Counted from the stretch's first letter, positions 11,328-27,812 are shown. The stretch: 64,000 bases of DNA from Nitrososphaerota archaeon (GCA_011605725.1 JAAOZP010000003.1:1-64000), one strand, 5' to 3'. Notes: a model not told the origin generated them from the letters alone. Numbers and translations are program-made.

Positions 11328-13010
11328 ATGAAGCGTCAAGCATTGTCCTTTTTATCACTGATGTTCCTGGCAATAATGATTTCCTATTTCGTTTACTCAT
11401 TGTGGAGGGTTGAGCATATGAAAGAGTCACAGACTTTAATAAGAAGAATCGAATTAATGCCTTCTACTCCTGAACCGTTTGTCATGAAAAACTGGAAGGA
11501 GCTTACTAAAGCATACATCCGTTTCGTCTTCAACTTCAACCTTACCGGTGAGTACTTGCCCTTAATAAGGCTAGATAAATCTGACCCGGACGCTATTTCC
11601 TTCGACCTGCCGTCTTACATCGGCGATTCTAGGATGCGTGAAGGCTCTGGAGAAGCAATTAATTGCGTAGCAGCAGTGTTGAGTGGCACGCTTATCGGTA
11701 TTAACATGAGTAACTATAATGGTTATGACTGGGTTTCAATGTGTAAAAGCTGGTTCAGTAAGGAAGACGGTATATTTCTCAATGCTAAGAGAGGGCAAAG
11801 CGGAGGGTCTTTCTGGTATGACATATATCCAAACATATTGATTTTTTCCCTAGTATACTACTATCCGGAAGCAGCGCCTTCATGGAATTCGACTCTGTAT
11901 AATGCGGCTGAAAGTTTTTACAAGGCTTCCCAAATTATTCGCACACGATACAATGATTCAGATTTTGACTTCACCGCGTTCGATTTCCGCGGAATGATAC
12001 CCGTTAATAACGGAAGATGGGTGGAACCGGATGCAGCGGCAGGAATCGCATGGCTGGAGTACATGGCTTACGTGAAATGGGGCAATCCGCGTTTTCTGGA
12101 TGCTGCGAAGTGGAACATGCAGTTCCTCCAAGAGAGGAAAATTAATCCTTTCTACGAAGTGTTGCTTCCCTTCGGAGCCTATACTGCTGCACGCATGAAT
12201 GCAGAGCTCAGAACAAACTACGATGTGCAAAAGCTTTTGAACTGGTGTTTTGACGGCGAGACCCCGATAGGCCCAAGACCCGGATGGGGTGTTATAGTCG
12301 GCAAGTGGGGTGATTACGATGTCAATGGATTAGTAGGTAGTCTTACAGACGGCGGCGGTTATGCTTTTGCAATGAATACCTTCGACATGGCTCTGCCACT
12401 GGTACCCCTAGTACGTTACAACACTAGTTTCGCCAAGGATATAGGCAAGTGGCTGCTTAATGCTGCGAACAATGCTCGATTGTTTTATCCGGATTCACTC
12501 CCGGAAAGCCATCAATCCTCCTCATCATGGAGATATAGCAACGTTGTTGCGTATGAAGGATTGCGATACATATGGAATGGGAAGAGTCCCTACGCGATGG
12601 GTGACCCCATTCTCCATGGCTGGGGCGCTACTGACCTGGGTCTTTACGGGTCTTCCCATGTGGGAGTGTTCGGCGGAATCATTAGTCTTACTGATGATGA
12701 GAAAATACTTCAAATAGACCTCCTTAAAACAGATATGTATCACGGTCCTGCTTACCCAACATACCTTTATTATAATCCTTATGATGTTGAGAAAAGTGTA
12801 AAGATAGAAGTTGGTTCTGAGCCGGTGGACATTTACTGCGCTGTTACACATAGGTTTTTAGGAAGGAGTGTAACAGGCACTGGGGTGATTACGCTTCCGC
12901 CGGACTCGGCTGCAGTGATTATACTAGTGCCGTCTGGGGGTCAGGTTGAATATTCTAACGGAAGAATGCTTGTGAACGGGATCATCGTAGACTATGAATG
13001 TGAAAGTTAA
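11328..13010 (+). CDS. Membrane-anchored putative glycan-active (alpha/alpha)-barrel enzyme, uncharacterised
   Basis: N-terminal TM helix; aromatic/acidic motifs GSFWYDIYPN, EPDAAAGIAW, NPFYEVLLP, YAFAMN, YEG; carbohydrate gene context. Confidence 0.6.
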   Translation: MKRQALSFLSLMFLAIMISYFVYSLWRVEHMKESQTLIRRIELMPSTPEPFVMKNWKELTKAYIRFVFNFNLTGEYLPLIRLDKSDPDAISFDLPSYIGDSRMREGSGEAINCVAAVLSGTLIGINMSNYNGYDWVSMCKSWFSKEDGIFLNAKRGQSGGSFWYDIYPNILIFSLVYYYPEAAPSWNSTLYNAAESFYKASQIIRTRYNDSDFDFTAFDFRGMIPVNNGRWVEPDAAAGIAWLEYMAYVKWGNPRFLDAAKWNMQFLQERKINPFYEVLLPFGAYTAARMNAELRTNYDVQKLLNWCFDGETPIGPRPGWGVIVGKWGDYDVNGLVGSLTDGGGYAFAMNTFDMALPLVPLVRYNTSFAKDIGKWLLNAANNARLFYPDSLPESHQSSSSWRYSNVVAYEGLRYIWNGKSPYAMGDPILHGWGATDLGLYGSSHVGVFGGIISLTDDEKILQIDLLKTDMYHGPAYPTYLYYNPYDVEKSVKIEVGSEPVDIYCAVTHRFLGRSVTGTGVITLPPDSAAVIILVPSGGQVEYSNGRMLVNGIIVDYECES

Positions 13011-13058
13011 AGTGCTGAAAGCTTTATATTGCTGATAAAAAGAATCATATAGCCAAGA

Positions 13059-14366
13059 TTGCCAAAACAGATCAGGTTCGACGAGAAAGATAAAGTTATT
13101 CTCTCGATCCTGTATGAAGACGCTCGCCTTAAAAACAGGCAGATCGCTTTAAAAACCAATCTTAGCCAAGCCACTGTCGCCAGAAGAATCAATAAAATGA
13201 AAAAAATGCAGATTATAAAAAGGGTTGTTCCCATAATTGATTATAAAAAAATAGGCAAGACTTCTGCATGCTTCATCCTGCTCGATTTAAAGAACTGCGA
13301 TGCCGACAGCTTGATGAAATACTTGGAAAATGCTGAGGAAGTAATATGTTTGTACCTTCTTGAAGGAGAAAAAATGCTTTTAAAAACTGTTTTTGAAAAC
13401 AGATCGGCTTTAAATAATTTTGTCGACAAGATTAAAAGGTTTTTCGGAAGCAACATCGACAGTCTTTACGAGGTCAGATCCATCCTGATTGAGGAGAAAT
13501 GTCCCTTCCAAGGCGTTTCAGAGTTGAGGGCTGAAACTCATTATGAGGATCAGTCGAAAATAACGCTAAGCAACAGTAGGATTAGGCTCACTGTAGATTT
13601 AGGCAAGGGTGGAATAATAGACGAAATAGTTCCCACGAACATGAGTAGCATAAACCTGGCTTTTCCCGAGCTTGGCCTGCTTTTCGACACTTTTATAGAA
13701 ACCCAGTTTTGGCTGGACGAGCTTCAAATAACTAAGCCCTACTACAATATAAAAAGGGATGAGAACTGGATGGAGCTAAACTTCAGAAAATCAGTTAAAG
13801 CGATTTCTGCGTTAAGAGGTTTAGAGATAACTAAGACAATTCGTTTAGAAAAAAACTTGAACGAGGCTAAGATCAAGTATTTACTGGTCAATAATGGTGG
13901 AGCTGAAAAAACATTGACGCTTTGGGTTTGCAACTATCTTGACGCCTCACTATTCTCAGAGCTGATAATCCCGTCGGCTGACGGCGTTAAAAAAATAAAG
14001 GTTGTGAACGATTCGAGCAGAGGCTTTTTCACAGTTTCGGAGAAAGAGCTGAATGAGCTGGTGGGGAAATACTGGCGGGATGAATGGGGCTTATTCGTCC
14101 ACCCCGAGAAGCCTGTAGATAGAGCTGGCTATTTCAGTAAGCTTTTAAAAATCATCCTAATGTTTCACTTCGACCCGAAGCAAGTGTGGGTTGTTAAGAG
14201 GTTTTGGGGAGAGAAATACGTTAGTCTAGAACTACTGTTCAACCCAGCCTCCATGCGGCCGGGGGAGACTGCTCAATACGAATTCAACATCCGCTTGTTA
14301 TCAAGCAGAAAAGACTATTCTGATGAGTTTCACGGTAATTTGTTTCATTTTTCCCCGGATATTTGA
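13059..14366 (+). CDS. Lrp/AsnC regulator fused to a galactose-mutarotase-like beta-sandwich domain
   Basis: DEKDKVILSILYEDAR...IA....LSQATVARRINKM....II.....IDYKKIG; C-terminal ITLSNSRIRLTVDLGKGGII...LEITKTIRL...Y.L.N...SLEL...PGE. Confidence 0.75.
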   Translation: MPKQIRFDEKDKVILSILYEDARLKNRQIALKTNLSQATVARRINKMKKMQIIKRVVPIIDYKKIGKTSACFILLDLKNCDADSLMKYLENAEEVICLYLLEGEKMLLKTVFENRSALNNFVDKIKRFFGSNIDSLYEVRSILIEEKCPFQGVSELRAETHYEDQSKITLSNSRIRLTVDLGKGGIIDEIVPTNMSSINLAFPELGLLFDTFIETQFWLDELQITKPYYNIKRDENWMELNFRKSVKAISALRGLEITKTIRLEKNLNEAKIKYLLVNNGGAEKTLTLWVCNYLDASLFSELIIPSADGVKKIKVVNDSSRGFFTVSEKELNELVGKYWRDEWGLFVHPEKPVDRAGYFSKLLKIILMFHFDPKQVWVVKRFWGEKYVSLELLFNPASMRPGETAQYEFNIRLLSSRKDYSDEFHGNLFHFSPDI

Positions 14367-14400
14367 CACATTTTTTCCTTAATTGAAAAAACTTAAAAAA
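14343..14400 (+). promoter_or_regulatory. Second copy of the operator plus BRE/TATA, upstream of the transporter operon
   Basis: TTTCATTTT-N6-GATATTTGACACATTTTT...AAAAAACTTAAAAA; overlaps the end of the regulator gene. Confidence 0.65.
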
Positions 14401-14427
14401 ACATCAAAAGTATTAACAACGGTAAAA

Positions 14428-16458
14428 ATGAGCCAGGAAGCTGGCGTACAAACGTATGAGGAAGGGGGGGCAAAAACTGTTCTAGCAAAATTCCCGTTAC
14501 GTGCCTTCATAATAGGCCTTATACTGGCAGTGATTTCGACCATGCTCTGGGTTGCGCATACTCGTGCCAACTTGACCTACAATATACCTTGGGCAGGCTT
14601 AGCTGCAGGAGGAATAGACTTCACACTGTTCATAGGATACGGTTTCGCTTCCCTAATAGTTCTACCAATCATCCTGTCTAAAATCGGCGTAAAACTTACT
14701 CCTACGGAATACGCTATCATATACATAATGGTTCTAATCGGATGGACTGGGCCTGCTCTTTTCTGGATGTGGGGCGTCCAAATATGGACTGTCTGGACAT
14801 GGAGCGGAGGAGTCGTGGCAAAAGAACTTGCATTAACCGGGAAAATACCTGCCTACTGGTATGTTTTGAACGAGAAACAGGCAGAATGGTTCTTCTCAGG
14901 CGGGCCTTTCATATTGAGCGAAATCTCTAGTCCAATACTCTTCTGGAGCGTAATGGCCATATGTGAAGGACTCATGACGTTCTTCCTAGCTCTGATCTTC
15001 AGAAGGAAATGGGTTGAAACCGAAAGCCTACCTTTCCCATTCGCCTCCTCAGCAGTAATGCTGGTAAACATGACTGAAGAAGCTCAAGACAAGCCCGGTA
15101 TTAAAATGGCGAGAGAAAGGCTACTCTGGATCGCGTTCCTAATCGCAGTGCTGGCTTACGGGTTCAACATAATACATGCTTTCATTCCAACAATACCGCG
15201 GATTCCAATAGATGAAATCGATCTGAATCCTTGGGGTGGGGGGAACATTGGAGTCAACCTGGATTTAACACCGACGTTTAAAGGCGCGATGATCGTTCTA
15301 AACTTCAATCCTCTGCTTATAGCAGCATTATTCCTCCTGCCGCTCGACATCCTGTTAACCACGTGGGTAGCAATGGTTGTGTTTCAATGGATATGGCCTG
15401 CCGTCGGGATCTCTACAGGCTTGTTCCCAGATATCTCGGCGCAAGGCGCTTGGAGCGTATGGTGGGCACTTGGAAACGAATGGTCCGGAGCAATCTGGTA
15501 TTTACTTGGATATGGCTTTATACAGGGAGTGGCAATATGGGTGATAATATCGAGTCGAAAATACTTTTCCAGCCTAATCTCCTCAGCCATCAAGGGAGAC
15601 GCTGAATCCCGCATCGGCCTCTTCGGCTTCATAGGCATAACCGTGATATGGCTACTCATCATGTTTGCGCAAGGCGCTAATCCATTGGTTATAACACTTT
15701 CAGTAGTCTATTTCCTCCTCGTCTACTTGGGAATGATGAGGTACCGTACGGAGTCTTCCCCCGCCGGCGGCGGCTTCTGGTGGTGGAACTGGACTAACGG
15801 AGTCTTCTCAAAAATAGGTAACTGGCCGATAGGATCGCCTGAAGCATATGTAACAATGAACCTAACGTCTCCAATGGGTGCAGGCCCAGGCAATATACAG
15901 TATGCACTATTATCAACAGATATTGTGCATATTTCATCACAGTTCAAGATGGATGTCAAACACCTGTGTTTAATCGTTGTCTTAACCACAGTGATCACCG
16001 TGATTTTCGGAGGCATATTCTATGCCTGGTGGGGCTACGCTGGTTTAAGAGGCCTCGGATGGCTTAACGACCAGCAAACCTTCGCGATAGACCTTGGGTA
16101 TGCGATTTATAAGAGTGGAACATCGTTCAAACTAACTGTCTGGGAGCCAACATACATTCCTTACATTGCTGGAGTCGTCTTGGCGGTGATACTCATGTGG
16201 CTTAAAGCGACTTTCGCAACAATCCCGTTCAACCCGTTAGGTTTAATAATGGGCTGCATGTACATGTGGCCATGGGTTTTCACGTCAGTGCTGATAGCTT
16301 GGCTGGCAAAGTACATAATCTTCAAAACAGGAGGAACCCCATTATACCAGAGGCTTCTCCCCGGTGCAATAGGTTTCATAGGTGGTTATTGGTTTGTGAA
16401 ACTAGTCATGTGGTTCATAGTCCGCCTCTTCATAGGATTACAGCTACCGCCCCCATAG
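14428..16458 (+). CDS. Polytopic membrane protein, DUF6785/OPT-superfamily-like transporter
   Basis: Many TM helices; LT..EYAIIY, IFRRKWVETESLPFP, PFNPLG, KYIIFKTGG..LYQR..P.AIG. Start moved to ATG 14428 because the ORF-track start (14383) lies inside the promoter. Confidence 0.75.
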   Translation: MSQEAGVQTYEEGGAKTVLAKFPLRAFIIGLILAVISTMLWVAHTRANLTYNIPWAGLAAGGIDFTLFIGYGFASLIVLPIILSKIGVKLTPTEYAIIYIMVLIGWTGPALFWMWGVQIWTVWTWSGGVVAKELALTGKIPAYWYVLNEKQAEWFFSGGPFILSEISSPILFWSVMAICEGLMTFFLALIFRRKWVETESLPFPFASSAVMLVNMTEEAQDKPGIKMARERLLWIAFLIAVLAYGFNIIHAFIPTIPRIPIDEIDLNPWGGGNIGVNLDLTPTFKGAMIVLNFNPLLIAALFLLPLDILLTTWVAMVVFQWIWPAVGISTGLFPDISAQGAWSVWWALGNEWSGAIWYLLGYGFIQGVAIWVIISSRKYFSSLISSAIKGDAESRIGLFGFIGITVIWLLIMFAQGANPLVITLSVVYFLLVYLGMMRYRTESSPAGGGFWWWNWTNGVFSKIGNWPIGSPEAYVTMNLTSPMGAGPGNIQYALLSTDIVHISSQFKMDVKHLCLIVVLTTVITVIFGGIFYAWWGYAGLRGLGWLNDQQTFAIDLGYAIYKSGTSFKLTVWEPTYIPYIAGVVLAVILMWLKATFATIPFNPLGLIMGCMYMWPWVFTSVLIAWLAKYIIFKTGGTPLYQRLLPGAIGFIGGYWFVKLVMWFIVRLFIGLQLPPP

Positions 16459-16531
16459 AAGCAAACATGTTTTTTTCAAACATCTATTCTTTTTCCGCTT
16501 TCTCCACTAAAAGGTGGTCGGCTTGAATAAG

Positions 16532-19500
16532 ATGAGAATATTACTCCTCACAATTCTTCTCATAGTGTTTTCCATGATGTTCCCCCCGGGCCCTCTAAAT
16601 CCGTCGGGATTAGGAGAGGAGAGAGAGGATAGTAGCGTTATGCACACGAGCCTCCACAGCGTCATGCAAAAAGTTGATTTAAACGCTGTGGTGAACCATG
16701 TTTCTTACCTTTCCAGTCTGGATTCACGCGTCACGGGTTATCCCGGGTATGAAAAAGCCTGTGAATATGTTTACAGCAGGTTTGTCGAATACGGTTTATC
16801 AAACGTCTCATACCACTTCTATAATGTTGCAGTTCCTATTGATTACGAGACATACGTATTTCTCCCCTCTAAAGGTGTTAAACTCAAAGCTTATGCACTT
16901 TGGCCCAACGGTATACAGGCTAGTTCAATAAATTTAACGGCGCCACTCGTCTACTGTGGGGACGGCGAGTGGAGAGATTTTGACGGAAAGAAGATAAACG
17001 GAAGCATAGTTCTTCTCGAGTTCAACAGCCGTGATAACTGGTTGAAGGCTTCTGAACTGGGAGCTAGAGCCGTTATCTTCATAGAGCCGGACGATACTTC
17101 TACCTCAGAGGCTCAGCTTAAGAAGCTTAATTATGTTCCCCTCGATTTCCCAAGGCTCTACGTGAACAAGACAGCAGCGAAAATAATCCTTGACGAGCTT
17201 AAGCTTGAAGATAGTCTCACAGTACAGGTTTTCTCAAACATGAAGTATGAAAACATACGTGCAAAGAATGTAGTTGGCTTCATAAACGGGGTTGACCCTG
17301 ATCCAGCGATACGCGAGCAAATAGTGTTGATAGTTTCTCATTTCGACTCGGCCTCAGTGGTGCCGGCGCTCTCACCTGGAGCGAGCGAGGCAATCGGAGT
17401 GGCGGCGCTTCTTGAGCTTGCAAAGTTTTTCGCCGAAAACCCTGCTCCACGCACATTAATGTTTATCGCATTTTCAGGACACGGGGAGAACCTGATGGGT
17501 GCAAGGGCTTTCATGGGGGACATCGTATGGTTCGAAAAGAATGTTTCTCTCGCATCGAAGTTTGTCAGCGTGCTGGATATAGACATAACTGCTGAAACGG
17601 ACTCCTCGGGATTCATGTTCTCCTTCATTGGAAACCAGGAGTCAAACAATTGGTATTCTGCATACTATCAAAGTTTCATCGAAAATGTTTCACAACTCTG
17701 GGTAGATCTGTATGCGAAAACATACAGGATAGAAGGATATCCTGGCATGCTTCCCGTAATGATAAGCCCGCTGAGCATCAGCTCTGAAGGAAACATCTTC
17801 GGCAGTTGCGGAATATTCTCAACCATTCAAATAACAGGCCACTCTTGGTATCGGTATAGGGGTACACCTATCGATACGCTGGATAAATATGATTTTAACA
17901 ACGTTAGGCCACAGGTGCAGGTTTTCTTTTTAAACGCTTACCTTCTTGCTAACTCTCTACCCAAAAAGCCTTTGCAACCGTTCAGCATCAGTTTCGCAAG
18001 GTTTCCACAGGGTAGCACTGTTGTGCAGGGCGGCGGATTCGGGCTTCTAGTTGGGAAAGTCGTGGAGTATGACATGGCGAAAGGGGAATACGAGCCTGTT
18101 CCAAACAGTATCGTCTTAATCAGATCTTCAACAGGCAGCGAGTTTCAAGTGACGTTTACTAACGCTGAGGGCGTTTTCATTTATCCTGGAGCACGTCCAC
18201 TAGCCCGTCAAGGCTACCCGTATTTTGTAGAAGCGTACACGATTAACAGCTCTACCAATTCAATACTGTACGCTCCAGATTACGGTAGGTATGTAGCATC
18301 CTACAGCAATTACATACAGGTTCCGATGGAGGGGTATCTGGGCACTTTAGAGCATCCGAGGCCTTTTGTTGTTTTCAAAGCGGGAAGCCTAGTACAGTAT
18401 GATGTCTTGGCCACTGAGCAACTACTGTCGACGATTAGCTTTTACTCTCGCGAATTAGGAATAACAGCTGGAACAATATCTCCAACGATATATGTAAACG
18501 ATATTGGAACGCATGCTCCGCCTGATCATTACAGCTGGATTGCGGAGAGTGCTGTCAGCATTGTTTTCGCAACCTCTTCGAAGCCTATCGAGGTAATAAT
18601 TAAAGTTGGCTCGTCACCATTAGGCATGCTGATTAACGCTACTCAAGAACATCCAGAGGGTTCAGGCATCAGGTTAAGGATTGGCGAACAGTTAAAAATC
18701 ACCCACACGCCTTTAAAACTTGCAAATGATCTTCTTCTCCTCAACACTGCCCGTTTATCCAGTGCTAACTTAAAAGGATTATACACTGGGGCTGAGGACT
18801 ATCATAGTCAGGCGTCAGCTTCCTTGGAAAACGCTAAGACCGCTCTCAACAGGAATGAATACTCGCTTTTCTATGCGGAATGTATCGAATCCTGGTCTTT
18901 AAGCAAACAGGTTTATCAACTTGTTATGGATAACATTAATTCCTCAGCAAGCACCGCTTCATTCCTATTTGCCTTCCTGATCCCATTCACACTGATCTTC
19001 GAAGGACTCTTCTTCTCCAATGTTAAAGCCTCCGCTAAGACTAGGTTTCTCAGGATAGTTGTAATCTTCGTTTCGATTCTAATGATCCTAGTGTTTTTCC
19101 ATCCGGGTTTCAGAATCGCTTCAAGCATTTACGTCTCCCTGCTCGGATTAACTATTCTAACTTTCACTCTCCCGGTAACGATAATTCTAATCTTGAACGC
19201 GGAAAGATTTCTTAGAGAAGTCAGAGTCAAGCTTATAGGAGAACACTATACTCGAGTGGGCAGGACAGCAGCCGTTTCTTTATCTTTCAACATGGGGATT
19301 TCACAGATGAGAAAGAGGACTTTAAGGACCTTCTTAGTGTTATTCTCGTTAATAGTAATAACTACGAGCACAGTCATGTTCACCTCCGTCTACCCGCTTA
19401 CGATTGTAGGTAAGTATCCGAAGACAGGGCAAGCCAACTATGCAGGCTTGTTCCTGAGAGACATAGGTTACTCCTCGCTTAACTTCTGGTTTGTTGACAG

Positions 19501-20944
19501 AATCGTGTCCGAATTCGGGGCTAACGCTAATATCTGTGCCAGAGCCGTACTATACCCGCCGAGCAGCTACATAAAAGACGGGTTTAAACTGTTTAACTCA
19601 AGCATGCATGAAACACGTGTCCTGGCTGTTTACGGTTTATCTTCAGAAGAAGGAGGAATAACCGGATGGGCTGAAAAACTAATAAACGGCTCATGGTTTC
19701 CCACAGGGTCTCTGCGTGTCGCAGTATTGCCAGACTCGTTGGCGAAAACGTTGCGAGTGAAAGTCGGGGACACGGTCTTCCTAGAAGGACTGCCTTTAAG
19801 GGTTGTAGGAATACTTAATTCCAGTGAAGCCAACCGGATTGTCGACCTGGATCAGAACCCGGCGACACCTAGGGATTTAAGAGTCATAACTGGAATAGGG
19901 TTCTTCTCCACCGGCGACCTGATTTTTGTACCGTATCAACTAGCCATAGACCTCGGGGGTAGCCTATACTCCATCGTAATCGGCTTTAGAGAAAGCAGTC
20001 AAGTGGCTGATGCTGCAGAGCGGCTGGCAAAGGAGACGCGGCTCGCTATTTACGCTGCAGAAAAAACAGGTGCGGATGGAAATATTTACTACTGTTCAAT
20101 CGCAAAGGGGATCCAGTCTTATGGTTACACTATGCTTCTACTCCCGTTAATAATATCCGGACTAGTAATATTCAACATGATTTTACGTGTTGTTTTTGAA
20201 AGGACGAGGGAAATAGGAATACTCGGGGCTGTTGGCGCATCACCGCTGCAGATAGCTGGAATGTTTCTCGGAGAAATTGTTACATACGCTATAGTTAGCG
20301 TCATCATCGGCTATGTAACCGGTATTGTTCTGCTTCAGACTTTAACAAGCATGGGTCTTTTCATCTTTGAAGGGTTCTTCCCAAACTATTCCTCAATGTT
20401 TGCAGCATTCGTTATAAGCTTGATTCTGCTTTCAGTGTTAATTCCAAGCCTATACCCTCTTTACAAGGCTTCCAGAATAGTTACGCCCTCTCTGGAAAGG
20501 AAGTGGAAGCTGCCTACAAAACCTGTCGGCGACAAATGGCTTATCCCGCTTCCCTTCGTATTCGTGAGCGAGAGTGAAGCCCACGGTATGCTAATGTTTC
20601 TGAAAGAGTATCTCAGTACGTTTACGTTGGAAGGCTTCGGCGCACCATTCGTCACTAAAAGCATAGCCTACAGGGAGGGGGAAAAGGAAAAAATCCTATC
20701 CGTCACAATGCATATCGCGCCTTTTCCAGCAGGCATTCATCAGAAAGTGGATGTCAATATAAGGTTTGACCCCAGCATTAAACGTTGGGCATCGAGTCTT
20801 CAAATCACAAGAATAGTGGGCGAGTTAAACATGTGGCAGAAGTCAAACTACATCGTTATAGATGCTTTAAGGAAGCAATTCCTCCAGTGGCGTGGCTTGC
20901 CTGAATCCGTGAAAAACAAGTATAAGGTGATGAAAAATGAGTAA
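16532..20944 (+). CDS. Giant fusion: signal peptide, PA/M28 peptidase-like domain, TM bundle, MacB/FtsX-like permease
   Basis: SRVTGYPG, GARAVIFIE (PA), SHFDS, GVAALLELA; later RKRTLRTFLVL and FERTREIGILGAVGASPLQIAGMFLGE (FtsX). Confidence 0.85.
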   Translation: MRILLLTILLIVFSMMFPPGPLNPSGLGEEREDSSVMHTSLHSVMQKVDLNAVVNHVSYLSSLDSRVTGYPGYEKACEYVYSRFVEYGLSNVSYHFYNVAVPIDYETYVFLPSKGVKLKAYALWPNGIQASSINLTAPLVYCGDGEWRDFDGKKINGSIVLLEFNSRDNWLKASELGARAVIFIEPDDTSTSEAQLKKLNYVPLDFPRLYVNKTAAKIILDELKLEDSLTVQVFSNMKYENIRAKNVVGFINGVDPDPAIREQIVLIVSHFDSASVVPALSPGASEAIGVAALLELAKFFAENPAPRTLMFIAFSGHGENLMGARAFMGDIVWFEKNVSLASKFVSVLDIDITAETDSSGFMFSFIGNQESNNWYSAYYQSFIENVSQLWVDLYAKTYRIEGYPGMLPVMISPLSISSEGNIFGSCGIFSTIQITGHSWYRYRGTPIDTLDKYDFNNVRPQVQVFFLNAYLLANSLPKKPLQPFSISFARFPQGSTVVQGGGFGLLVGKVVEYDMAKGEYEPVPNSIVLIRSSTGSEFQVTFTNAEGVFIYPGARPLARQGYPYFVEAYTINSSTNSILYAPDYGRYVASYSNYIQVPMEGYLGTLEHPRPFVVFKAGSLVQYDVLATEQLLSTISFYSRELGITAGTISPTIYVNDIGTHAPPDHYSWIAESAVSIVFATSSKPIEVIIKVGSSPLGMLINATQEHPEGSGIRLRIGEQLKITHTPLKLANDLLLLNTARLSSANLKGLYTGAEDYHSQASASLENAKTALNRNEYSLFYAECIESWSLSKQVYQLVMDNINSSASTASFLFAFLIPFTLIFEGLFFSNVKASAKTRFLRIVVIFVSILMILVFFHPGFRIASSIYVSLLGLTILTFTLPVTIILILNAERFLREVRVKLIGEHYTRVGRTAAVSLSFNMGISQMRKRTLRTFLVLFSLIVITTSTVMFTSVYPLTIVGKYPKTGQANYAGLFLRDIGYSSLNFWFVDRIVSEFGANANICARAVLYPPSSYIKDGFKLFNSSMHETRVLAVYGLSSEEGGITGWAEKLINGSWFPTGSLRVAVLPDSLAKTLRVKVGDTVFLEGLPLRVVGILNSSEANRIVDLDQNPATPRDLRVITGIGFFSTGDLIFVPYQLAIDLGGSLYSIVIGFRESSQVADAAERLAKETRLAIYAAEKTGADGNIYYCSIAKGIQSYGYTMLLLPLIISGLVIFNMILRVVFERTREIGILGAVGASPLQIAGMFLGEIVTYAIVSVIIGYVTGIVLLQTLTSMGLFIFEGFFPNYSSMFAAFVISLILLSVLIPSLYPLYKASRIVTPSLERKWKLPTKPVGDKWLIPLPFVFVSESEAHGMLMFLKEYLSTFTLEGFGAPFVTKSIAYREGEKEKILSVTMHIAPFPAGIHQKVDVNIRFDPSIKRWASSLQITRIVGELNMWQKSNYIVIDALRKQFLQWRGLPESVKNKYKVMKNE

Positions 20945-22817
20945 TAAGAAAACCACGTATGGGAAAGGGTTAACATTAAGGGTGATGCTTGTAATCCTGT
21001 ATTCCGGCGTATTCCTAATGCCGGCAGTCATATTTTCCACCCTCACGTCTGGAGTAAGTGTTGGAGGAAGTGTTAGCTTCGTAGTTGCTTTTCTCGCGAT
21101 CGAGCTTGCAGCACTCATGGGCTCGTCTTTAAGCAAGCAGGAAGTATTCATACTGTGGAGCTGCAGCGGGGTTGCTGCAACCGACGTGATCTTTCTCTCC
21201 CTGCTGCAGAACCTGTATTTCAGATCAATCTCTTCAGTAACCTGGCAGTTTAAATCCCTCGATACTTCTTTACCACTGCCTTTAGCTATTCCAGACTGGT
21301 TTGCACCCCCTCCGAACTCCCCGGTGCTCCTGCTCAGGACTTTCCTTCATCAAGACTGGTTGTTGCCGATAGCCGTAACACTAACAGGATGGATACTCTC
21401 CGGGAAAGTTATAGACTTAGCACTTGGCTTCCTATTCTTCAAAATATATTCCGACGAGGAAAAACTTCCTTTTCCAATGCAGGAAGTGACTGCTCAAATG
21501 ATTCTCACCCTTCCCGAGGAGAAATCGAGCAAGAAGAGCATGCTGACCATCACGGCTCTAATAGCGTTTGTTTACAATATCCTGCTTTACGCAATACCCT
21601 TCGTAACATCTTTTTCAATAGTTCCGATTCCTATCCCCTGGATGGATTTCAGTAATGCTTTTGAATCCTTCCTACCGGGTGCCACGTTCGGCATCGCAAC
21701 AGATCTGCTCACGTTCGCCTCAGGCTTTATAAGCCCTTTGAACGTGGTTGTCTCCATGTTCATCGGATCATTCTCATTCTTCTTTATAGGTAATTACTTT
21801 GCCACCAGATTAGGTTTGTTCGCGTGGACTCCAGGCATGAATCTAAGCATGCTTTACCAGCGTTCAATTCTCTACGTTTGGGCATATCCGAATATTGGTC
21901 TAGCTATAGCTGCAGCTTTAATACCTATAATAACTAGGCCGAAGTATCTAGTAGGCGCGTTTAAAAGCCTCTCAAGGTTTTCATCCTTATCTAGCGAGAA
22001 GGGAGAACTATCCCTGTTAACGGTTTTCCTTCTCTACCTCGGTTCCAGCATTATAATAATTTTAATCGTAATGATGCTAACAGGGTTCCCACTGTATATC
22101 GCCATACCTTTCATACTCGGATGGTCCTTCATATCGTCAATGATTTCAACTAGATCGGTTGCAGTCTCCGGGTTTCAAGTCACAGTGCCGTATGTCCGCG
22201 AGGCTTTAATCTTAGCCAGCGGATATAATCATGTCGACATCTGGTTCGCCCCCATGGGGAGCTCAGGGGGTGCAGCATGGTGGGCAAGCTGGTTTAAGCT
22301 GAGCGACCTGTTGGAAACAAACTACAAGGATATTATTAAAGGACAAATATTTGCTTCAATCGTCGCCATAGTGTTCTCCTTTATTTACGTATCCTTGTTC
22401 TGGAGCATTTCTCCAATACCGTCACCCCTATACCCTGCTGTCGACATATACTGGCCGGTTAACATTTTAATGTCAGGCCTATGGATAACAGGCGCGATAA
22501 GCACTGGGAATGCTGTTCAAACAATTATCGGCACCACACTCGTAGCCACAGCGGTTTCCTTACTCACAGAGTTTCTTAAAATACCGTTCTCACTGATAGG
22601 TTTTCTCATCGGTACTTCTTCACCTATTCCGACAAGCGTTACAGCAATTCTTGGAGCAATCTTCGGCGTAGCGCTCAGAAGGTTTAAGGGGGAAAACTGG
22701 TATAGGGAGAATAAGTCTGTTATTGGAGCAGGGCTCTTCCTCGGGTCCAGCCTAGCCATAACCATTGGTGTTGCCTCAGCAATGATATTAAAAGGCGGAT
22801 GGTCTCTTCCATATTGA
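20937..22817 (+). CDS. OPT-superfamily-like membrane transporter
   Basis: GLTLR, LSKQE, EEKLPFP, many TM helices; overlaps upstream gene by 8 bp. Confidence 0.75.
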   Translation: MSNKKTTYGKGLTLRVMLVILYSGVFLMPAVIFSTLTSGVSVGGSVSFVVAFLAIELAALMGSSLSKQEVFILWSCSGVAATDVIFLSLLQNLYFRSISSVTWQFKSLDTSLPLPLAIPDWFAPPPNSPVLLLRTFLHQDWLLPIAVTLTGWILSGKVIDLALGFLFFKIYSDEEKLPFPMQEVTAQMILTLPEEKSSKKSMLTITALIAFVYNILLYAIPFVTSFSIVPIPIPWMDFSNAFESFLPGATFGIATDLLTFASGFISPLNVVVSMFIGSFSFFFIGNYFATRLGLFAWTPGMNLSMLYQRSILYVWAYPNIGLAIAAALIPIITRPKYLVGAFKSLSRFSSLSSEKGELSLLTVFLLYLGSSIIIILIVMMLTGFPLYIAIPFILGWSFISSMISTRSVAVSGFQVTVPYVREALILASGYNHVDIWFAPMGSSGGAAWWASWFKLSDLLETNYKDIIKGQIFASIVAIVFSFIYVSLFWSISPIPSPLYPAVDIYWPVNILMSGLWITGAISTGNAVQTIIGTTLVATAVSLLTEFLKIPFSLIGFLIGTSSPIPTSVTAILGAIFGVALRRFKGENWYRENKSVIGAGLFLGSSLAITIGVASAMILKGGWSLPY

Positions 22818-22932
22818 TTTTCAGCTTTTACCGTAATTATTTTTCATCTTTTCAAGCTGAAATGAAAAAAAATGTATTCAGCTTCACAAAAAATAAAAAC
22901 GGATTTCTGCGGAAACGGGAATCGTAAGGATA

Positions 22933-23985
22933 ATGACTGTGGAAGAGAGGCTCCTTAGAAAAGCACTTGATCACCTTGAAAAACATAGAGGCATGAGGAG
23001 AAACGAGACTGATGATATTTTTGAAAGAAAAGCGCTAATTGTTTCGGAACAAGACATTTTAATGAGAAACTACCCAAGAAAGCACCCGAAGCTCGCATTC
23101 AATCCAGGCGCTCTCCTTCAAGGAGAAGTTCTGCATGTTTTCCCGCGGCTAATTTTCGACTATTACACTTACACGTCAAGCATAGGCAGGTTCTCCATAA
23201 ATGTGGAAAGCTTGATTAACGGTGGCCTCAGCCTTCCTGTTGAAACGGACATCGTGATGTGGCCGAAGCTCCTCTGGGAATTCAGGGGCTGCGAAGACCC
23301 TCGTGTTTTTAAACAAGATGGAAAAATGCTTATGCTGTACACCGGTTATGGTTATTTCTTAGAAAAGGATACGCTGAACACAAGCATCGTGCAGGCGTTT
23401 GCAGAGTTTGATAACGGTTTCTCAATAACAAGTAGAAAATACTTTAAAATAAAATCTATGAATGAGGACTATTTCATTCCGAAAAGCAACAAGGATTCCG
23501 CCTTCTTAAAAGTGAATAGTGAAGAAGCCGTTATTCTGACCCGCCCCCTGATAGGAAGCGTTGAAGTAGGCTGGAGGGCTGATGCGAATTTGAATGAAGC
23601 CGTAATGTATGAAAAAACAATGGAACCGTCTCTGCCTTTCGAGAATTGGGAGTTTAAAGTAGGCTGGTCGACAAACGCTATCCGGCTTTCCTCTAACGAG
23701 TTCTTGGTTGGTTGGCACGGCATTGTTAAAGAAGACTATTCATACAGGAATGGTTTAGCAATTCTCGACAACGATGGTCGATTACTAGCTGTAAGCAATT
23801 ACCTGCTTGCCCCAAAGGGAGTGAGTGAGGAGTATGGTGATAGGCCTCACGTGATATTTGGCAACGGGCTGGTTTCCTACAAGGAGAGCCTTATCTGGGT
23901 TGGTGGTGTCAGCGATTATGCAATAGGATTCTTCGTCACGGAGCTTGAGAGAGCCTTGGGAAAATTGAAATGGGTTAGCGGATAG
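22933..23985 (+). CDS. GH130-like glycosidase/phosphorylase (five-bladed beta-propeller)
   Basis: AFNPGA, GCEDPRV, LYTG, NKDSA, KVGW, WHG, VIF.NG, G.SD. Confidence 0.82.
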   Translation: MTVEERLLRKALDHLEKHRGMRRNETDDIFERKALIVSEQDILMRNYPRKHPKLAFNPGALLQGEVLHVFPRLIFDYYTYTSSIGRFSINVESLINGGLSLPVETDIVMWPKLLWEFRGCEDPRVFKQDGKMLMLYTGYGYFLEKDTLNTSIVQAFAEFDNGFSITSRKYFKIKSMNEDYFIPKSNKDSAFLKVNSEEAVILTRPLIGSVEVGWRADANLNEAVMYEKTMEPSLPFENWEFKVGWSTNAIRLSSNEFLVGWHGIVKEDYSYRNGLAILDNDGRLLAVSNYLLAPKGVSEEYGDRPHVIFGNGLVSYKESLIWVGGVSDYAIGFFVTELERALGKLKWVSG

Positions 23986-23998
23986 TCTACAATACGCG

Positions 23999-26359
23999 TC
24001 AGTTCAGAACAATCATGTAATACGTATCTCCATGACCCATAAATTCCTGGGTTTTTCCGTCGAATAGGCTTGTATGAACCTCTTTCACCACCTTGCCCTC
24101 CTCGTTTAATTGTAAAATTTTCAAAGGCTGTTTCCTCTCATCGAGATAAATAATTCTTGCTTTGAAGGGATAGTCCTTCGTCCCGGATACTTTGAAGACA
24201 ACCTTTCCGTTTTCTTCAGAATGAAAAACGAGAGGATACTCCGTATAAAGTATAACTTTCCCATTGTTGAAAACATTGTACAGCCCGGTTGCAATCTCTA
24301 TCGGATACCCTGCGCCATATATTTCTTGGCCTACTTGACCTGATTTCTTCCAACCGAACATGAGGTCTTCAAACGGAATATACCAGGATGGAACAAGCTC
24401 GCCGCAAGCCGTTTTTTCAGCAATCATTTCTCCCGGATATTCTGGAGGCATGGTGTATTGCGCTTTATATTTCAGAAGCTCGGCTACGAGTTTTTTAACA
24501 TGCTTTGGAAGACTTTTTTCACCATTAGTGAGATATTCAAGCATATATCTAAAAACCTTTCCCTCTTCGCATGCAGCTACGTAGGATTCCGGCATAGCCA
24601 TAGTTGAGAAAAATGTTCTAAAGTATTTCCCATAACCATATTCACACTCGAAGAATACGCTGTGCCTAATTATGTTGGCTAAGGGTATGTAACTGATTTT
24701 CAAATATTTCTCATCGTTTGTCAATTGATACAGCATTAAGGCGGCAACCGCACCCTCAGGCGTAGCAGTCATTTCATATGCATACTCGAAGCCTCTTTCC
24801 CCAATCCTCTCCACTGCTTTCTCAGCCTCCTCCAGGAACTTCCTATCGCCTGTTAACCTGTAGTACTGCAACATTAAGTATGCATAGACGCCTGTGACGT
24901 CGTATTCGTAAACAGGTTTTCCAGTACCCATAATATCGTGATACTCACCGGTTAAAATATCTACAAACTGGGGAAACACGTAGGAAACTTTTCTCCCCAG
25001 CATTGTAACAATGTTTCTACTCTTAAGAACCATTTCTCTAGCTACAGAGTTTTCCTCTGCCAAGTGACTGGTCCAGAGAATGGGGCAAACGAAATACCAT
25101 GCGTCAATTACCAGCGGCCTCTTGTTTTCTCCTAATACTAAGCTTTCAAGTATACATCCCTCCCCGTTTCCATCTACGTTGGGTTTAAAAAAGTCTTGAA
25201 GACCTTTTTCAAGCCTCTCTATCAAATCGAGCCCTCTTCCGAACTTCTTATAGTATTTCTTAAGAGGAACAAGCACGTCTAACAGGGTTATTAGCTCTGC
25301 GTTTGATGACCTGGAATCCTTTACGTATGCCCTAAGATACTGCTTACCATTAATAGTCACCCAATTTTCAGGATGAAGAAGGTTTTCAATTTCTTTCGGA
25401 ACTATTCCGGTTGCCCAGTCCACATATGTTGTTTCAGGCTTATCGATTTCATCGTATATTTCAGAGAACATCTCCAGGAAAAGCTCGCAGCATTCCACGT
25501 TATTCTCCGGTTCTACGGGAGCAAGATATAGAAAACTGTCCAGAATCGTTACTTCCACACCGGGAGGGATTTCTTCACTGATCGGAATTTTATATCCAAA
25601 CTTTAAAATGCTGTTGAAACTTTTATGGTCAAAATCGATGCGGCGAGTAGGGTAATAACTTATCCACGGATAGGATAAGTCAACAGTGTATGCAGCATCG
25701 GTCTTCGTAAGCTCGTAATACTTGTTTAAAGAGGATAGGTTTTGAAAGTAGAGAATAGTGCTTTTAACAACTTCCTCCTCGTAAAGGAAGCAAAACTGGT
25801 TATACACGTTTCTCAATCCCCAGGCAGACCTGTGGTCAACAGTTCCCCTTAAATAGTCTACCCCGCGCCCAGGGATAAGCTTGCCGCTTGAAACATCGTA
25901 AAACTTAATCTCCTGGTCAGTGGTGAGTCCCCACCCTTCTGCAGAAACCTGAGGGAAAAAGCGGTAGTAAGGGACTTTCTGCACTTCCTCTCTCCCCTTC
26001 GTTGAAAGGTCGACTTTCCAATTTATTAACCCAGGCTTATTTTTGAAAAATCTAATTCTCACGGTGAAATCAGCCCATTCATGTCTACTTTCCAGTAGAA
26101 CTATGATTTCTCTATCGTTTTCACTGACAGTTATTTCCCTTACGCGTGTAAGTATTTCTAAAGCCGCATTATCTAGCCCGAAGTTCGTAACAAGCACCTT
26201 ATTCCCAGGGTTCTTCAGGCTGTAAATGAATATGAAGCCGTTTGTTTTTTCCTTATGATATCGAACCTCGTATTCGCCGCTTATAACGGTGAAATACTCT
26301 TTCCCCCAAGAGACAGTTGAAACCTCTTTACCATCATCTTTTTTTTCTCTACATTGCAT
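23999..26359 (-). CDS. Uncharacterised six-hairpin-glycosidase-like protein
   Basis: 786 aa; YEYDVTGVYAY, Y.LTGDRKFLEEA, LYQLT.DEKYL helical-toroid repeats; SGQVGQEIYGAG. Confidence 0.6.
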   Translation of the reverse strand: MQCREKKDDGKEVSTVSWGKEYFTVISGEYEVRYHKEKTNGFIFIYSLKNPGNKVLVTNFGLDNAALEILTRVREITVSENDREIIVLLESRHEWADFTVRIRFFKNKPGLINWKVDLSTKGREEVQKVPYYRFFPQVSAEGWGLTTDQEIKFYDVSSGKLIPGRGVDYLRGTVDHRSAWGLRNVYNQFCFLYEEEVVKSTILYFQNLSSLNKYYELTKTDAAYTVDLSYPWISYYPTRRIDFDHKSFNSILKFGYKIPISEEIPPGVEVTILDSFLYLAPVEPENNVECCELFLEMFSEIYDEIDKPETTYVDWATGIVPKEIENLLHPENWVTINGKQYLRAYVKDSRSSNAELITLLDVLVPLKKYYKKFGRGLDLIERLEKGLQDFFKPNVDGNGEGCILESLVLGENKRPLVIDAWYFVCPILWTSHLAEENSVAREMVLKSRNIVTMLGRKVSYVFPQFVDILTGEYHDIMGTGKPVYEYDVTGVYAYLMLQYYRLTGDRKFLEEAEKAVERIGERGFEYAYEMTATPEGAVAALMLYQLTNDEKYLKISYIPLANIIRHSVFFECEYGYGKYFRTFFSTMAMPESYVAACEEGKVFRYMLEYLTNGEKSLPKHVKKLVAELLKYKAQYTMPPEYPGEMIAEKTACGELVPSWYIPFEDLMFGWKKSGQVGQEIYGAGYPIEIATGLYNVFNNGKVILYTEYPLVFHSEENGKVVFKVSGTKDYPFKARIIYLDERKQPLKILQLNEEGKVVKEVHTSLFDGKTQEFMGHGDTYYMIVLN

Positions 26360-26573: not shown

Positions 26574-27812
26574 TTACTTGTCTTTCTCAGCTTGAAGAGT
26601 AGGGTTTACTTTCTCACGGAGTTTTCCTCTTGATCTGGCGGCGAGGAGGCTAGCTGAAATCGTCGCGATAATCCCAGTGAGCGCACTGTAAGTAAAGGCT
26701 TGAGTTCTACCAGCGTTGTCCCATATAAACCCTACTAGCGACATGCCTGCTAGATTTGCCAGGCCTACTGTGATGTAGAATACTCCATAGGCTGTTCCCC
26801 TAAGTTCTGGAGGAGCATACTTCGGGACTAAGGCTTTTGAAACCGTTTCGTATATTCCGAAATACAGGCCGTAAAAAACAATAAGCAGAACAGTTGCGGA
26901 AAGCCCGCTTAAGTAAGCAAAGAAAAGGGAGGTTGATGAGAAAAGTAGGAAGGACGTTGCAAGAAGAGGCTCCCTCCCGATTCTGTCGGAAAGAACTCCG
27001 GCAGGATAACCTACGAGGGTGTGAAACAGGTTAATCGCCATGTAGACTAGCGGCACAAGTTCAGGAGTGATTCCCAGCTCGGTTGAACGGACAAGTATGA
27101 ATGAAAAATCGTAATACCCGGCTCCAAACACGGCTAGTGCTGCTAAAAGAATGAGGAAATCTCCCTTCACGATTTGAGACGCTCCCTTAAGGAGTTGCGA
27201 TTTCCTGGGAGGAGTCTCCACATCCACTACGAAAAGCCATAGAATGAGCAGAGCAATCACACCGGGTATGAATGAGACTATAAAGAGGAGTCTTGAACCA
27301 ATTAAGGGTAAAAGAACTGCTGCAAGCAGGGGTCCGAGAATAGCACCAAGCTGGTCGAGCGTCCTATGGAGCCCAAAAGCCCTACCGGTTACTTTCTCAT
27401 CTACAGATTGGCTGAGAAGAGCGTCACGCGGAGAAGTTCTTATCCCCTTGCCTGTTCTGTCCATAACTCTGACTGAAAAAGCCTCCGCTGGCGTTGTTGA
27501 AACCGCGAAAAGAGGTTTTGAAAGAGTTGAGAAAGCATAGCCCGTGAAAACTAAAGGCTTTCTTTTTCCAAGCCTGTCTGAAAGAAAACCGCTTACCATT
27601 CTGAAGAAATTGTTAGCAAGCTCTCCAGCACCCTCAATAAGCCCGAGAATCATCCTCGTCCCGCCTAAATCCCTAACTATAAAGACAGGCAAGTAGCCCA
27701 TGATCATTTCCGTCGAAACATCAGTAAAGAAGCTTACAAGCCCCATCGCGTAGACGTTTCTGAAACCAGGTTTCTCCGGGTCCCCGTGGAAACCTTGATT
27801 TGTTTTCTCCAC
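26574..27812 (-). CDS. MFS transporter
   Basis: GFLSDRLGKRK motif A, DRTGKGIRTSPRDAL, GRAFGLHR, second motif GVLSDRIGR. Confidence 0.93.
   Translation of the reverse strand: MEKTNQGFHGDPEKPGFRNVYAMGLVSFFTDVSTEMIMGYLPVFIVRDLGGTRMILGLIEGAGELANNFFRMVSGFLSDRLGKRKPLVFTGYAFSTLSKPLFAVSTTPAEAFSVRVMDRTGKGIRTSPRDALLSQSVDEKVTGRAFGLHRTLDQLGAILGPLLAAVLLPLIGSRLLFIVSFIPGVIALLILWLFVVDVETPPRKSQLLKGASQIVKGDFLILLAALAVFGAGYYDFSFILVRSTELGITPELVPLVYMAINLFHTLVGYPAGVLSDRIGREPLLATSFLLFSSTSLFFAYLSGLSATVLLIVFYGLYFGIYETVSKALVPKYAPPELRGTAYGVFYITVGLANLAGMSLVGFIWDNAGRTQAFTYSALTGIIATISASLLAARSRGKLREKVNPTLQAEKDK

Follow-up and report, generated by a model that had tools for sequence, protein, structure and literature searches.

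What does a set of three membrane-protein genes with no ATPase of its own do beside genes for carbohydrate-active enzymes? The question is raised by a stretch of 64,000 nucleotides from a Nitrososphaerota archaeon (GCA_011605725.1, JAAOZP010000003.1:1-64000), the whole of which is referred to here as the window. Between positions 14383 and 22817 it encodes a DUF6785/DUF6784 polytopic protein, a giant protein of 1476 amino acids (aa) and an OPT-like polytopic protein, and we call these three genes the cassette. A preliminary description, made from the sequence alone, had taken them for a new class of glycan or glycopeptide import system. The analysis presented here suggests that their products form the membrane-bound core of a system with several parts that has so far not been described. 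Judged by sequence comparison, its parts belong to known superfamilies, namely the type VII ATP-binding cassette (ABC) systems, OPT and M28, and their combination appears to match no described system. The reading that we tentatively favour, at a little less than even probability, is an ATP-assisted system for the capture and uptake of oligosaccharides or glycoconjugates. To our knowledge, glycan-product uptake in archaea and in several uncultured bacterial phyla is poorly known beyond binding-protein ABC importers.

The giant protein

The topology of the giant was derived from hydropathy and from an AlphaFold2 model of residues 800-1476, which has a predicted local distance difference test score (pLDDT) of 84.9. 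About eight transmembrane helices (TM) make up two FtsX-type units. TM1 (residues 9-27), a signal anchor, is followed by a first ectodomain of about 790 aa (28-815), TM2-4, a cytoplasmic loop carrying a helix at 917-934, TM5, a MacB-type second ectodomain (961-1204), TM6-8 and a C-terminal domain (1325-1476). Foldseek searches with the model returned MacB (5gko, E 2.9e-11) and LolE (9rlc, E 8.9e-10), with further matches to LolCDE, HrtB, YtrF, BceB and YbbP, and the second ectodomain matched 3ftj (TM score 0.61 by target, root mean square deviation 3.0). On the strength of this model, the giant is best described as a membrane component of the type VII (MacB/FtsX-class) ABC systems, in which an extracytoplasmic domain lies between the first and second helices of a four-helix FtsX unit. 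In the predicted geometry helix 917-934 precedes TM5, at the position of the MacB-type coupling helix. The preliminary description had seen in this protein a peptidase-like region and a MacB/FtsX permease; Pfam bears out both, with the correction that there are two FtsX-type units, not one, and an extra C-terminal domain.

Sequence alignment relates the head of the first ectodomain to two PA-domain aminopeptidases, 2ek8 (phmmer E 1.7e-15) and 6hc6, and, with E 1.4e-4, to nicalin. Across 53 family members the catalytic (general-base) Glu of M28 is replaced by His in 46, the zinc-ligand Glu by Trp, Tyr, Gly or Phe, and the fifth-ligand His by Glu in 44. Other parts of the site persist: 32 of the 53 have H276 (Tyr in 17), the bridging Asp position holds Glu or Asp, D278 never varies and D357 is present in 46. 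The head keeps the M28 fold (47.8 bits), but with the catalytic Glu-Glu pair replaced throughout the family it is no longer a canonical aminopeptidase. The site is remodelled, not simply lost, and a different metal site or activity is possible. This PA/M28 head is the most conserved part of the giant: the five paralogues of this genome, described below, share about 40% identity there, against 19-23% in residues 346-800 and in the second ectodomain.

The C-terminal domain, of about 150 aa, was modelled with a pLDDT of 92.9 as a beta-alpha-beta4-alpha2 fold and has seven residues that are invariant in 49 sequences. It occurs in the ESM Atlas solely behind FtsX domains and is family-specific; topology and the positive-inside rule place it probably in the cytoplasm. 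Its profile matched no PDB entry, Foldseek returned no match at E <= 0.001, and a feature search of the ESM Atlas gave no usable match. The best VIA-align hits (StART-like, METTL16 VCR and Bet v 1-like) reached a Z of 8.4, a level common for unmatched models, so the domain was not assigned to any fold family.

The two polytopic proteins

The giant is flanked, as the preliminary description had it, by two OPT-like proteins that share an E.LPFP motif, and open reading frames (ORFs), Pfam and the motif itself all agree on this arrangement. The two families are homologous over their full length: hhalign, given 43 DUF6785 relatives and 41 relatives of the third protein, aligned 593 columns with a probability of 99.96 and an E of 5e-39. 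By this comparison the DUF6785 and OPT-like proteins are full-length paralogues. Pfam OPT is matched by 19 of the 41 OPT-like members (best E 1e-17) and by two of the 43 DUF6785 members, and the DUF6785 protein of the window itself has no Pfam OPT match. Because the homology is full-length and both families contain OPT matches, the two proteins can be classed by profile as remote members of the OPT superfamily.

The shared motif, ESLPFP in the DUF6785 protein (residues 214-219) and EKLPFP in the OPT-like protein (175-180), seen with BLASTP at E 3e-5, is the best-conserved spot of both families. P219 is invariant and E214 and L216 are nearly so among the 43 DUF6785 sequences, and F179 and P180 are invariant among the 41 OPT-like ones. 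Hydropathy gives 12-13 strong membrane segments and additional weak ones, with at least 13 hydrophobic segments in the DUF6785 protein. Neither phmmer nor the family profiles of the OPT-like and DUF6785 proteins matched a solved structure in the PDB.

Conservation and paralogous cassettes

The three genes are adjacent in 19 of the 22 loci inspected, which come from Thermoproteota, Promethearchaeota, Desulfovibrio and other bacteria. A single search with the giant found more than 150 full-length relatives, spread over Thermoproteota, Bathyarchaeia, Asgard archaea, Micrarchaeia, Latescibacterota, Armatimonadota and others, and DUF6785 has 551 representative clusters at E <= 0.001. Among 401 sampled genomes of the phylum, 68 have a strong match to the giant. 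The count of paralogues per genome, a check proposed in the preliminary description, is high here: the genome of the window (2.23 Mb, 93% complete) holds five complete cassettes, on contigs C5 (that of the window), C7, C13, C2 and C3. A search for longer proteins in which the giant is fused to an OPT-like protein found none, which is weak evidence of their absence.

Reduced forms were also seen. Contig C1 of the same genome (C1:55349-56944 and C1:59346-62092) encodes a 1070-aa FtsX-type relative of the giant (E 2.4e-16) that lies 2.4 kb from two GHL10 genes and may be a sixth, reduced version of the system. Six genomes of the sample (G080, G205, G271, G325, G359 and G379) encode a protein of 942-964 aa related to the membrane half of the giant (E 1e-21 to 1e-24); here the system may exist in a shortened form that lacks the large head. 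A match to the small FtsX protein discussed in the following section has E 1e-26 to 1e-29 in G080, G205, G271 and G379 and is weaker in G325 and G359.

A candidate ATPase encoded elsewhere

The preliminary description had reported neither an ABC ATPase nor a solute-binding protein in the locus, and had supposed that an ATPase is supplied in trans or is not needed. The two absences hold: tblastn (E <= 1e-3) found no ABC nucleotide-binding domain on the whole 90,875-base contig, and no solute-binding protein was present among the nine neighbouring ORFs scanned with Pfam. Supply in trans now has specific candidates. A two-gene operon on another contig of the same genome (C10:57025-58462) encodes a small FtsX protein (231 aa), which has four TM helices but lacks an ectodomain, and a MacB/LolD-type ATPase of 244 aa (C10:57728-58462), and an orphan ATPase of the C10 type is found at C11:54087-54869. 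Given the C10 candidate, that no ATPase is needed becomes the less likely option.

Such genes lie near the cassette in other lineages. The operon of a Desulfovibrio metagenome-assembled genome (MAG; L011) runs in the order small FtsX, ABC ATPase, giant, DUF6785, OPT-like, and in a Promethearchaeota MAG (L005) a small FtsX gene and two ABC genes stand two genes upstream of the cassette. A complete genome of 1,580,347 bases from the window's own phylum (L047) has a small FtsX-ABC-ABC operon 3 kb from its cassette, with a 189-aa ORF and a GH57 gene in between; this operon, two GH57 genes and the cassette all fall within 17 kb (G046:C1:998000-1017999). Identity between the C10 ATPase and the ATPases linked to the cassette in L011 and L005 is 65-68%, and the ATPase remains 60-69% identical across domains of life. 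In a small tree the C10 ATPase groups with the gene that follows small FtsX in three other lineages (support 0.82); the tree does not place the C11 ATPase. Of the 68 sampled genomes in which the giant has a strong match, 61 also have a strong orthologue of the small FtsX protein (E <= 1e-28), as do 14 of the remaining 333; this tally is to be read as a pattern and not as a statistic, since related genomes are not independent.

Docking of the C10 ATPase onto residues 800-1476 of the giant scored 0.44, against 0.01 for the best control, a weak signal that likeness to solved complexes of this kind may explain. The runs agreed in at least 85% of contacts, with a partner pLDDT of at least 78. Of 80 solved complexes 58 passed the mark used, as did two of 110 mismatched pairs, and scores of 0.60 or below were found in seven of those 80 and in both of the mismatches that passed. 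Taken together, the sequence comparisons suggest that an ATP motor for the cassette is encoded elsewhere in the genome, with the C10 small FtsX-ATPase pair as the most likely candidate; the orphan ATPase on C11 is probably also part of it.

A bacterial locus (L004) is the only one with MalK-type ATPase genes, two of them, close to its cassette. In G071, a congener without the cassette, the small-FtsX match contains apparent stops; these were not used as a sign of co-loss, as a 222-aa open frame suggests that they fall at the edge of the match. A 338-aa AAA_15/AAA_21 (OLD/AbiEii-like) ATPase encoded just upstream of the locus (9989-11005) is more defence-type in look, and it was discarded as a motor: it has no Pfam ABC_tran match, scores far below the cut-off of transporter-ATPase models and is not kept near other cassettes.

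Organisation of the locus

Six ORFs with short gaps between them run along the + strand from 11328 to 23985, and two minus-strand genes converge on this cluster (Table 1). The start of the OPT-like gene overlaps the stop of the giant by 8 bases, and the DUF6785 gene has an alternative ATG start at 14428.

Table 1. Genes of the locus and regions of the cassette proteins; positions are counted from the first base of the window.
Feature	Position	Strand	Evidence or remark
560-aa single-pass protein	11328..13010	+	family scan: no known family
Lrp/AsnC-type regulator, 435 aa	13059..14366	+	helix-turn-helix family match; 16 bases separate its end from the cassette
DUF6785/DUF6784 polytopic protein, 691 aa	14383..16458	+	Pfam, 93.5 bits (DUF6785) and 47 bits (DUF6784)
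ESLPFP motif, residues 214-219 of the DUF6785 protein	15022..15039	+	
Giant protein, 1476 aa	16514..20944	+	Pfam PA, Peptidase_M28 (47.8 bits), MacB_PCD (35.8 bits), FtsX (55.9 bits)
PA and M28-like head of the giant, residues 40-345	16631..17548	+	alignment to 2ek8 and 6hc6
Variable outer region of the giant, residues 346-800	17549..18913	+	no family match
Second ectodomain of the giant, MacB periplasmic-core type, residues 961-1204	19394..20125	+	Pfam MacB_PCD; Foldseek 3ftj
FtsX TM6-8 of the giant, residues 1205-1324	20126..20485	+	Pfam FtsX; LolF and MacB matches; AlphaFold2 model
C-terminal domain of the giant, residues 1325-1476	20486..20944	+	conservation and AlphaFold2 model
OPT-like polytopic protein, 626 aa	20937..22817	+	Pfam OPT, 30.0 bits (cut-off 25.8)
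EKLPFP motif, residues 175-180 of the OPT-like protein	21459..21476	+	
GH130 beta-mannoside phosphorylase-type enzyme, directly downstream of the OPT-like gene	22933..23985	+	Pfam, 231 bits
786-aa soluble protein	23999..26359	-	weak (alpha/alpha)6-glycosidase-type leads, GH127/GH76-type
MFS transporter	26574..27812	-	family scan

The regulator that had been noted in the locus proved to be of the Lrp/AsnC helix-turn-helix type. It is about 280-300 residues longer than usual, its extra C-terminal part matches no family, and it could be the sugar sensor of the locus. Of the three genes that had been called carbohydrate-enzyme-like, that for the GH130 protein stands (231 bits), the 786-aa protein has weak leads only and the 560-aa protein matches nothing. 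Both of the latter have counterparts in the Promethearchaeota locus: a 51%-identical homologue of the 560-aa protein (L005:21506-23074, minus strand) adjoins a GH130 gene near the cassette, and a weak homologue of the 786-aa protein (L005:5152-6384, minus strand; 24% over 425 residues) lies directly upstream of it. The 560-aa and 786-aa proteins are candidates for undescribed glycan-active enzymes.

Neighbouring genes and a possible glycan link

A glycoside hydrolase (GH) or carbohydrate-binding module (CBM) gene directly adjoins the cassette at four of the five copies in this genome. The adjoining gene is GH130 in the window (C5) and GHL10 on C3; on C7 a GH42-like gene is followed by GH3, and a CBM4_9 protein is also encoded; on C13 an Asparaginase_2 gene lies upstream and GH38 downstream. 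The C2 cassette is adjoined by a gene for a DUF5107-TPR protein. On C13 (L008:5319-6236, 14933-17365 and 17287-18735) the cassette is flanked by the Asparaginase_2 gene, the GH38 alpha-mannosidase gene and a ceramidase-like gene, a set that would suit the breakdown of N-glycans or glycopeptides; the Asparaginase_2 family includes glycosylasparaginase.

Eight of the 18 foreign loci have GH genes within 10 kb. These are GHL10/GHL6 together with a TrmB sugar regulator (L002), GH29 (L004), GH130 together with the homologues of the window's 560-aa and 786-aa proteins (L005, Promethearchaeota), GH127 and GH65 (L006), two GH38 (L044), two GH57 (L047), GHL10 (L048) and GH130 (L053). The association with carbohydrate-active enzymes that the preliminary description expected of homologous loci is accordingly frequent, not universal: it is seen by adjacency in this genome, and about half of the foreign loci lack it. 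Genes of four GH families were counted over the genome, but the count was set aside as a test, because the families had been chosen from the neighbours of the cassettes; without the four index genes, one of 14 remains near a cassette. A stronger argument for a glycan link is that four of the five cassettes directly adjoin such genes and that the locus in its entirety (cassette, 560-aa protein, 786-aa-like protein and GH130) is conserved between a genome of the Thermoproteota and one of the Promethearchaeota. The whole locus seems to have been conserved or transferred across archaeal phyla.

Neighbours of other kinds recur as well. URO-D-like genes stand beside cassettes in two unrelated genomes (L048:3830-4924 and L053:10182-11648), and P-type cation ATPase genes in two others (L050:1012-3678 and L051:13104-15812).

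Proposed working and alternative explanations

In the working that we propose, glycoside hydrolases would trim a polymer outside the cell and the outer arm of the giant would capture the trimmed product. The giant, with its two FtsX-type units in one chain, would act as outer receptor and force transmitter, and ATP-driven movement through the FtsX helices would pass the product to the paralogous OPT-superfamily pair, the presumed path across the membrane, which would carry it into the cell. The small ectodomain-less FtsX protein and the C10 ATPase, probably with the C11 ATPase, would serve all five cassettes in trans. Each paralogous cassette could be tuned to a different glycan, and the copy in the window, with its GH130 enzyme, would handle sugars of the beta-mannoside or N-glycan-core type. 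We infer here the formation of a complex, the use of ATP, import as the direction of transport and the class of substrate. That a peptide-transporter family should serve glycans has precedent, because Opp/Dpp-class 'peptide' ABC transporters import oligosaccharides in hyperthermophilic archaea and in Thermotoga. A bolder form of the proposal, possible though doubtful, is that the cassette defines a new class of nutrient importer in which a MacB-type mechanotransmission ABC engine (the giant, the small FtsX protein and two ATPases) feeds a hetero-pair of OPT-fold permeases.

Several observations weigh against ATP-assisted glycan uptake. We know of no characterised type VII ABC system that imports; all export, extract or transmit force. 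A cytoplasmic coupling helix appears to be missing from the giant's first FtsX-type unit, there being just 8 residues before TM1, and the head is more conserved than the rest of the ectodomain (about 40% against 19-23%), unlike a specificity-determining receptor. At 30 bits the third protein's assignment to OPT is weak, and searches by sequence led to no solved structure of the OPT type. The giant stands alone in three of the 22 loci (L006, L046 and L054). No GH gene lies within 10 kb at ten foreign loci (L001, L011, L045, L046, L049-L052, L054 and one record without DNA), and the genome itself is GH-rich, with at least 18 genes in four GH families, five of them near cassettes.

The OPT-type permeases might instead be importers of oligopeptides, or of N-glycosylated peptides such as those of S-layer glycoproteins, with the head binding the peptide end or trimming it in a non-canonical way. 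We consider such a scavenger unlikely. OPT (Pfam PF03169) is a family of oligopeptide and metal-chelate importers, and a head that aligns to PA-domain aminopeptidases and is the most conserved part of the giant would fit the recognition of a common substrate feature such as a peptide terminus; the catalytic Glu-Glu pair of M28 is nevertheless replaced family-wide, with Glu in place of the fifth-ligand His. A glycopeptide substrate would agree with the Asparaginase_2 and GH38 alpha-mannosidase genes that flank the C13 cassette and with GH130, GH20/84 and GH29 neighbours, all of them N-glycan-type enzymes, but GH57, GH127, GH65, GH3 and CBM4_9 neighbours point to plant or microbial polysaccharides, and among the genes next to the 22 cassettes none for a peptidase was seen, whereas GH genes are frequent there. 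In Fervidibacter sacchari, a cultured member of the Armatimonadota, M28-family peptidases and an OPT superfamily oligopeptide transporter have been detected and interpreted as peptide catabolism (PMC11535203); these proteins may belong to the cassette family. An outward-acting envelope machine, which we rate as quite unlikely, would have the giant spend ATP on expelling, extracting or activating a target beyond the membrane, be it a lipid-linked glycan, a component of the surface layer or secreted hydrolases, with the OPT-like proteins as flippases or channels. All solved relatives of its FtsX part (MacB, LolCDE, HrtBA, YtrEF, BceAB and YbbAP) act outward or transmit force, whereas the known OPT members are importers. 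The C-terminal domain is weakly like lipid-binding START/helix-grip folds (Z up to 8.4), but at the level common for unmatched models. Some neighbours are of glycosyltransferase or surface-layer type (GT2 at L053, GT92 at L011, a faint SlpA_C at L004 and DegT at L049), yet catabolic GH genes, sugar regulators (TrmB) and sugar-type MFS genes are far commoner than biosynthetic ones, and five diverged paralogues in a small genome suit a diversity of nutritional substrates better than housekeeping.

The cassette could also work without ATP, the OPT-type pair being proton-driven carriers, the giant a tethered receptor or scaffold, and the small FtsX-ATPase operon a separate unit that merely co-occurs. 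This we regard as very unlikely. No ATPase is encoded in cis here or at most loci, but small FtsX and ATPase genes are part of the cassette operon in Desulfovibrio and adjoin the cassette in two lineages of archaea, the unit tracks the giant across the 401 genomes, and the ATPase is highly similar across domains of life (60-69% identity). A pattern of duplicated FtsX permeases with no ATPase gene nearby has been recognised before, as in NCBIfam TIGR03434 (ADOP, which we take to stand for Acidobacterial duplicated orphan permease), to which there is a weak match. The apparent lack of a coupling helix in the first FtsX-type unit would accord with this, and the family-specific C-terminal domain could replace a nucleotide-binding domain; the second unit, on the other hand, keeps in the model a helix at the MacB-type coupling-helix position (917-934).

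Significance

A search of the literature accessible to us found no paper on the cassette or on DUF6785 or DUF6784, and searches on FtsX, M28, OPT, GH and archaea and on archaeal polysaccharide utilisation loci gave nothing relevant. What appears new is the combination: two OPT-fold paralogues paired with a giant whose FtsX unit is duplicated and whose C-terminal domain is family-specific, a small FtsX-ATPase pair that is usually encoded in trans, and expansion beside GH genes. The cassette is widespread and has multiplied in GH-rich genomes. Automatic annotation labels its proteins 'M28 peptidase', 'antimicrobial peptide permease' and 'oligopeptide transporter', and metabolic reconstructions may be placing it under peptide catabolism. 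Should the cassette prove to work in uptake, it would present a new architecture, a mechanotransmission ABC engine with OPT-fold carriers and one motor shared by several cassettes, and would offer a marker for finding archaeal glycan loci. Should the bolder proposal of a new importer class be right, it would be the first type VII ABC system in uptake and a counterpart of polysaccharide utilisation loci in archaea (and in Latescibacterota, Armatimonadota and Planctomycetota), with one shared motor for several substrate-specific cassettes. The candidate trans-encoded motor makes reconstitution possible.

Comparison with known systems

In its organisation the locus resembles the polysaccharide utilisation loci of Bacteroidota and the Opp-class sugar ABC importers of archaea and Thermotoga: transporter, GH genes and regulator are co-located, and diverged copies are accompanied by different GH families. 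The likeness to polysaccharide utilisation loci drawn in the preliminary description is sound to this extent and is an organisational analogy only. Unlike these systems, the cassette has no SusC/SusD, TonB-dependent transporter, solute-binding protein or BPD_transp_1 permease among the neighbours scanned, and no importer set of the CUT1, CUT2 or Opp type (solute-binding protein, BPD_transp_1 and MalK/OppD ATPase) was found in the cassette or among the scanned neighbours in the window.

The OPT/Yellow-Stripe-like (YSL) family (TC 2.A.67, PF03169) comprises proteins of about 16 membrane helices that import peptides or metal chelates by proton coupling, and canonical members work alone on the proton-motive force. 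The cassette pair is likewise polytopic, at about 630-690 aa, with the third protein above the Pfam gathering score, and its LPFP.A motif resembles what we take to be the L.FPSG.A motif of OPT/YSL proteins. It differs in being very remote (30 bits for the third protein, and Pfam OPT matches in two of 43 DUF6785 members), in bringing two diverged paralogues together and in standing next to an FtsX-type giant.

The head of the giant shares with the PA-domain M28 aminopeptidases (Aneurinibacillus 2ek8 and Bacillus YwaD 6hc6) and with their inactive relatives (nicalin, nicastrin and the transferrin receptor) a PA insert in an M28 fold and a partly kept HxD. Unlike the aminopeptidases, it has His for the catalytic Glu, an aromatic residue or Gly for the zinc-ligand Glu and Glu for the last His. 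It resembles the non-catalytic, receptor-type relatives of M28, yet is fused to an ABC-type membrane unit.

The closest likeness of the giant's membrane part is to the type VII or 'mechanotransmission' ABC systems (MacB, LolCDE, FtsEX, HrtBA, BceAB, YtrEF and YbbAP), with which it shares the four-helix FtsX unit and its ectodomain between TM1 and TM2, and the MacB-type periplasmic core domain. In the model a helix precedes TM5 at the coupling-helix position, and the candidate partner ATPases are of MacB/LolD sequence type. Two units in one chain are found also in YbbP, BceB and ADOP. Unlike all of these, the giant has a PA/M28-like head on a first ectodomain of 790 aa and ends in a C-terminal domain specific to its family, its gene is paired with two OPT-superfamily permease genes (19 of 22 loci), its ATPase and an extra ectodomain-less FtsX protein are usually encoded elsewhere, and the system has expanded to five copies in this genome, beside GH genes.

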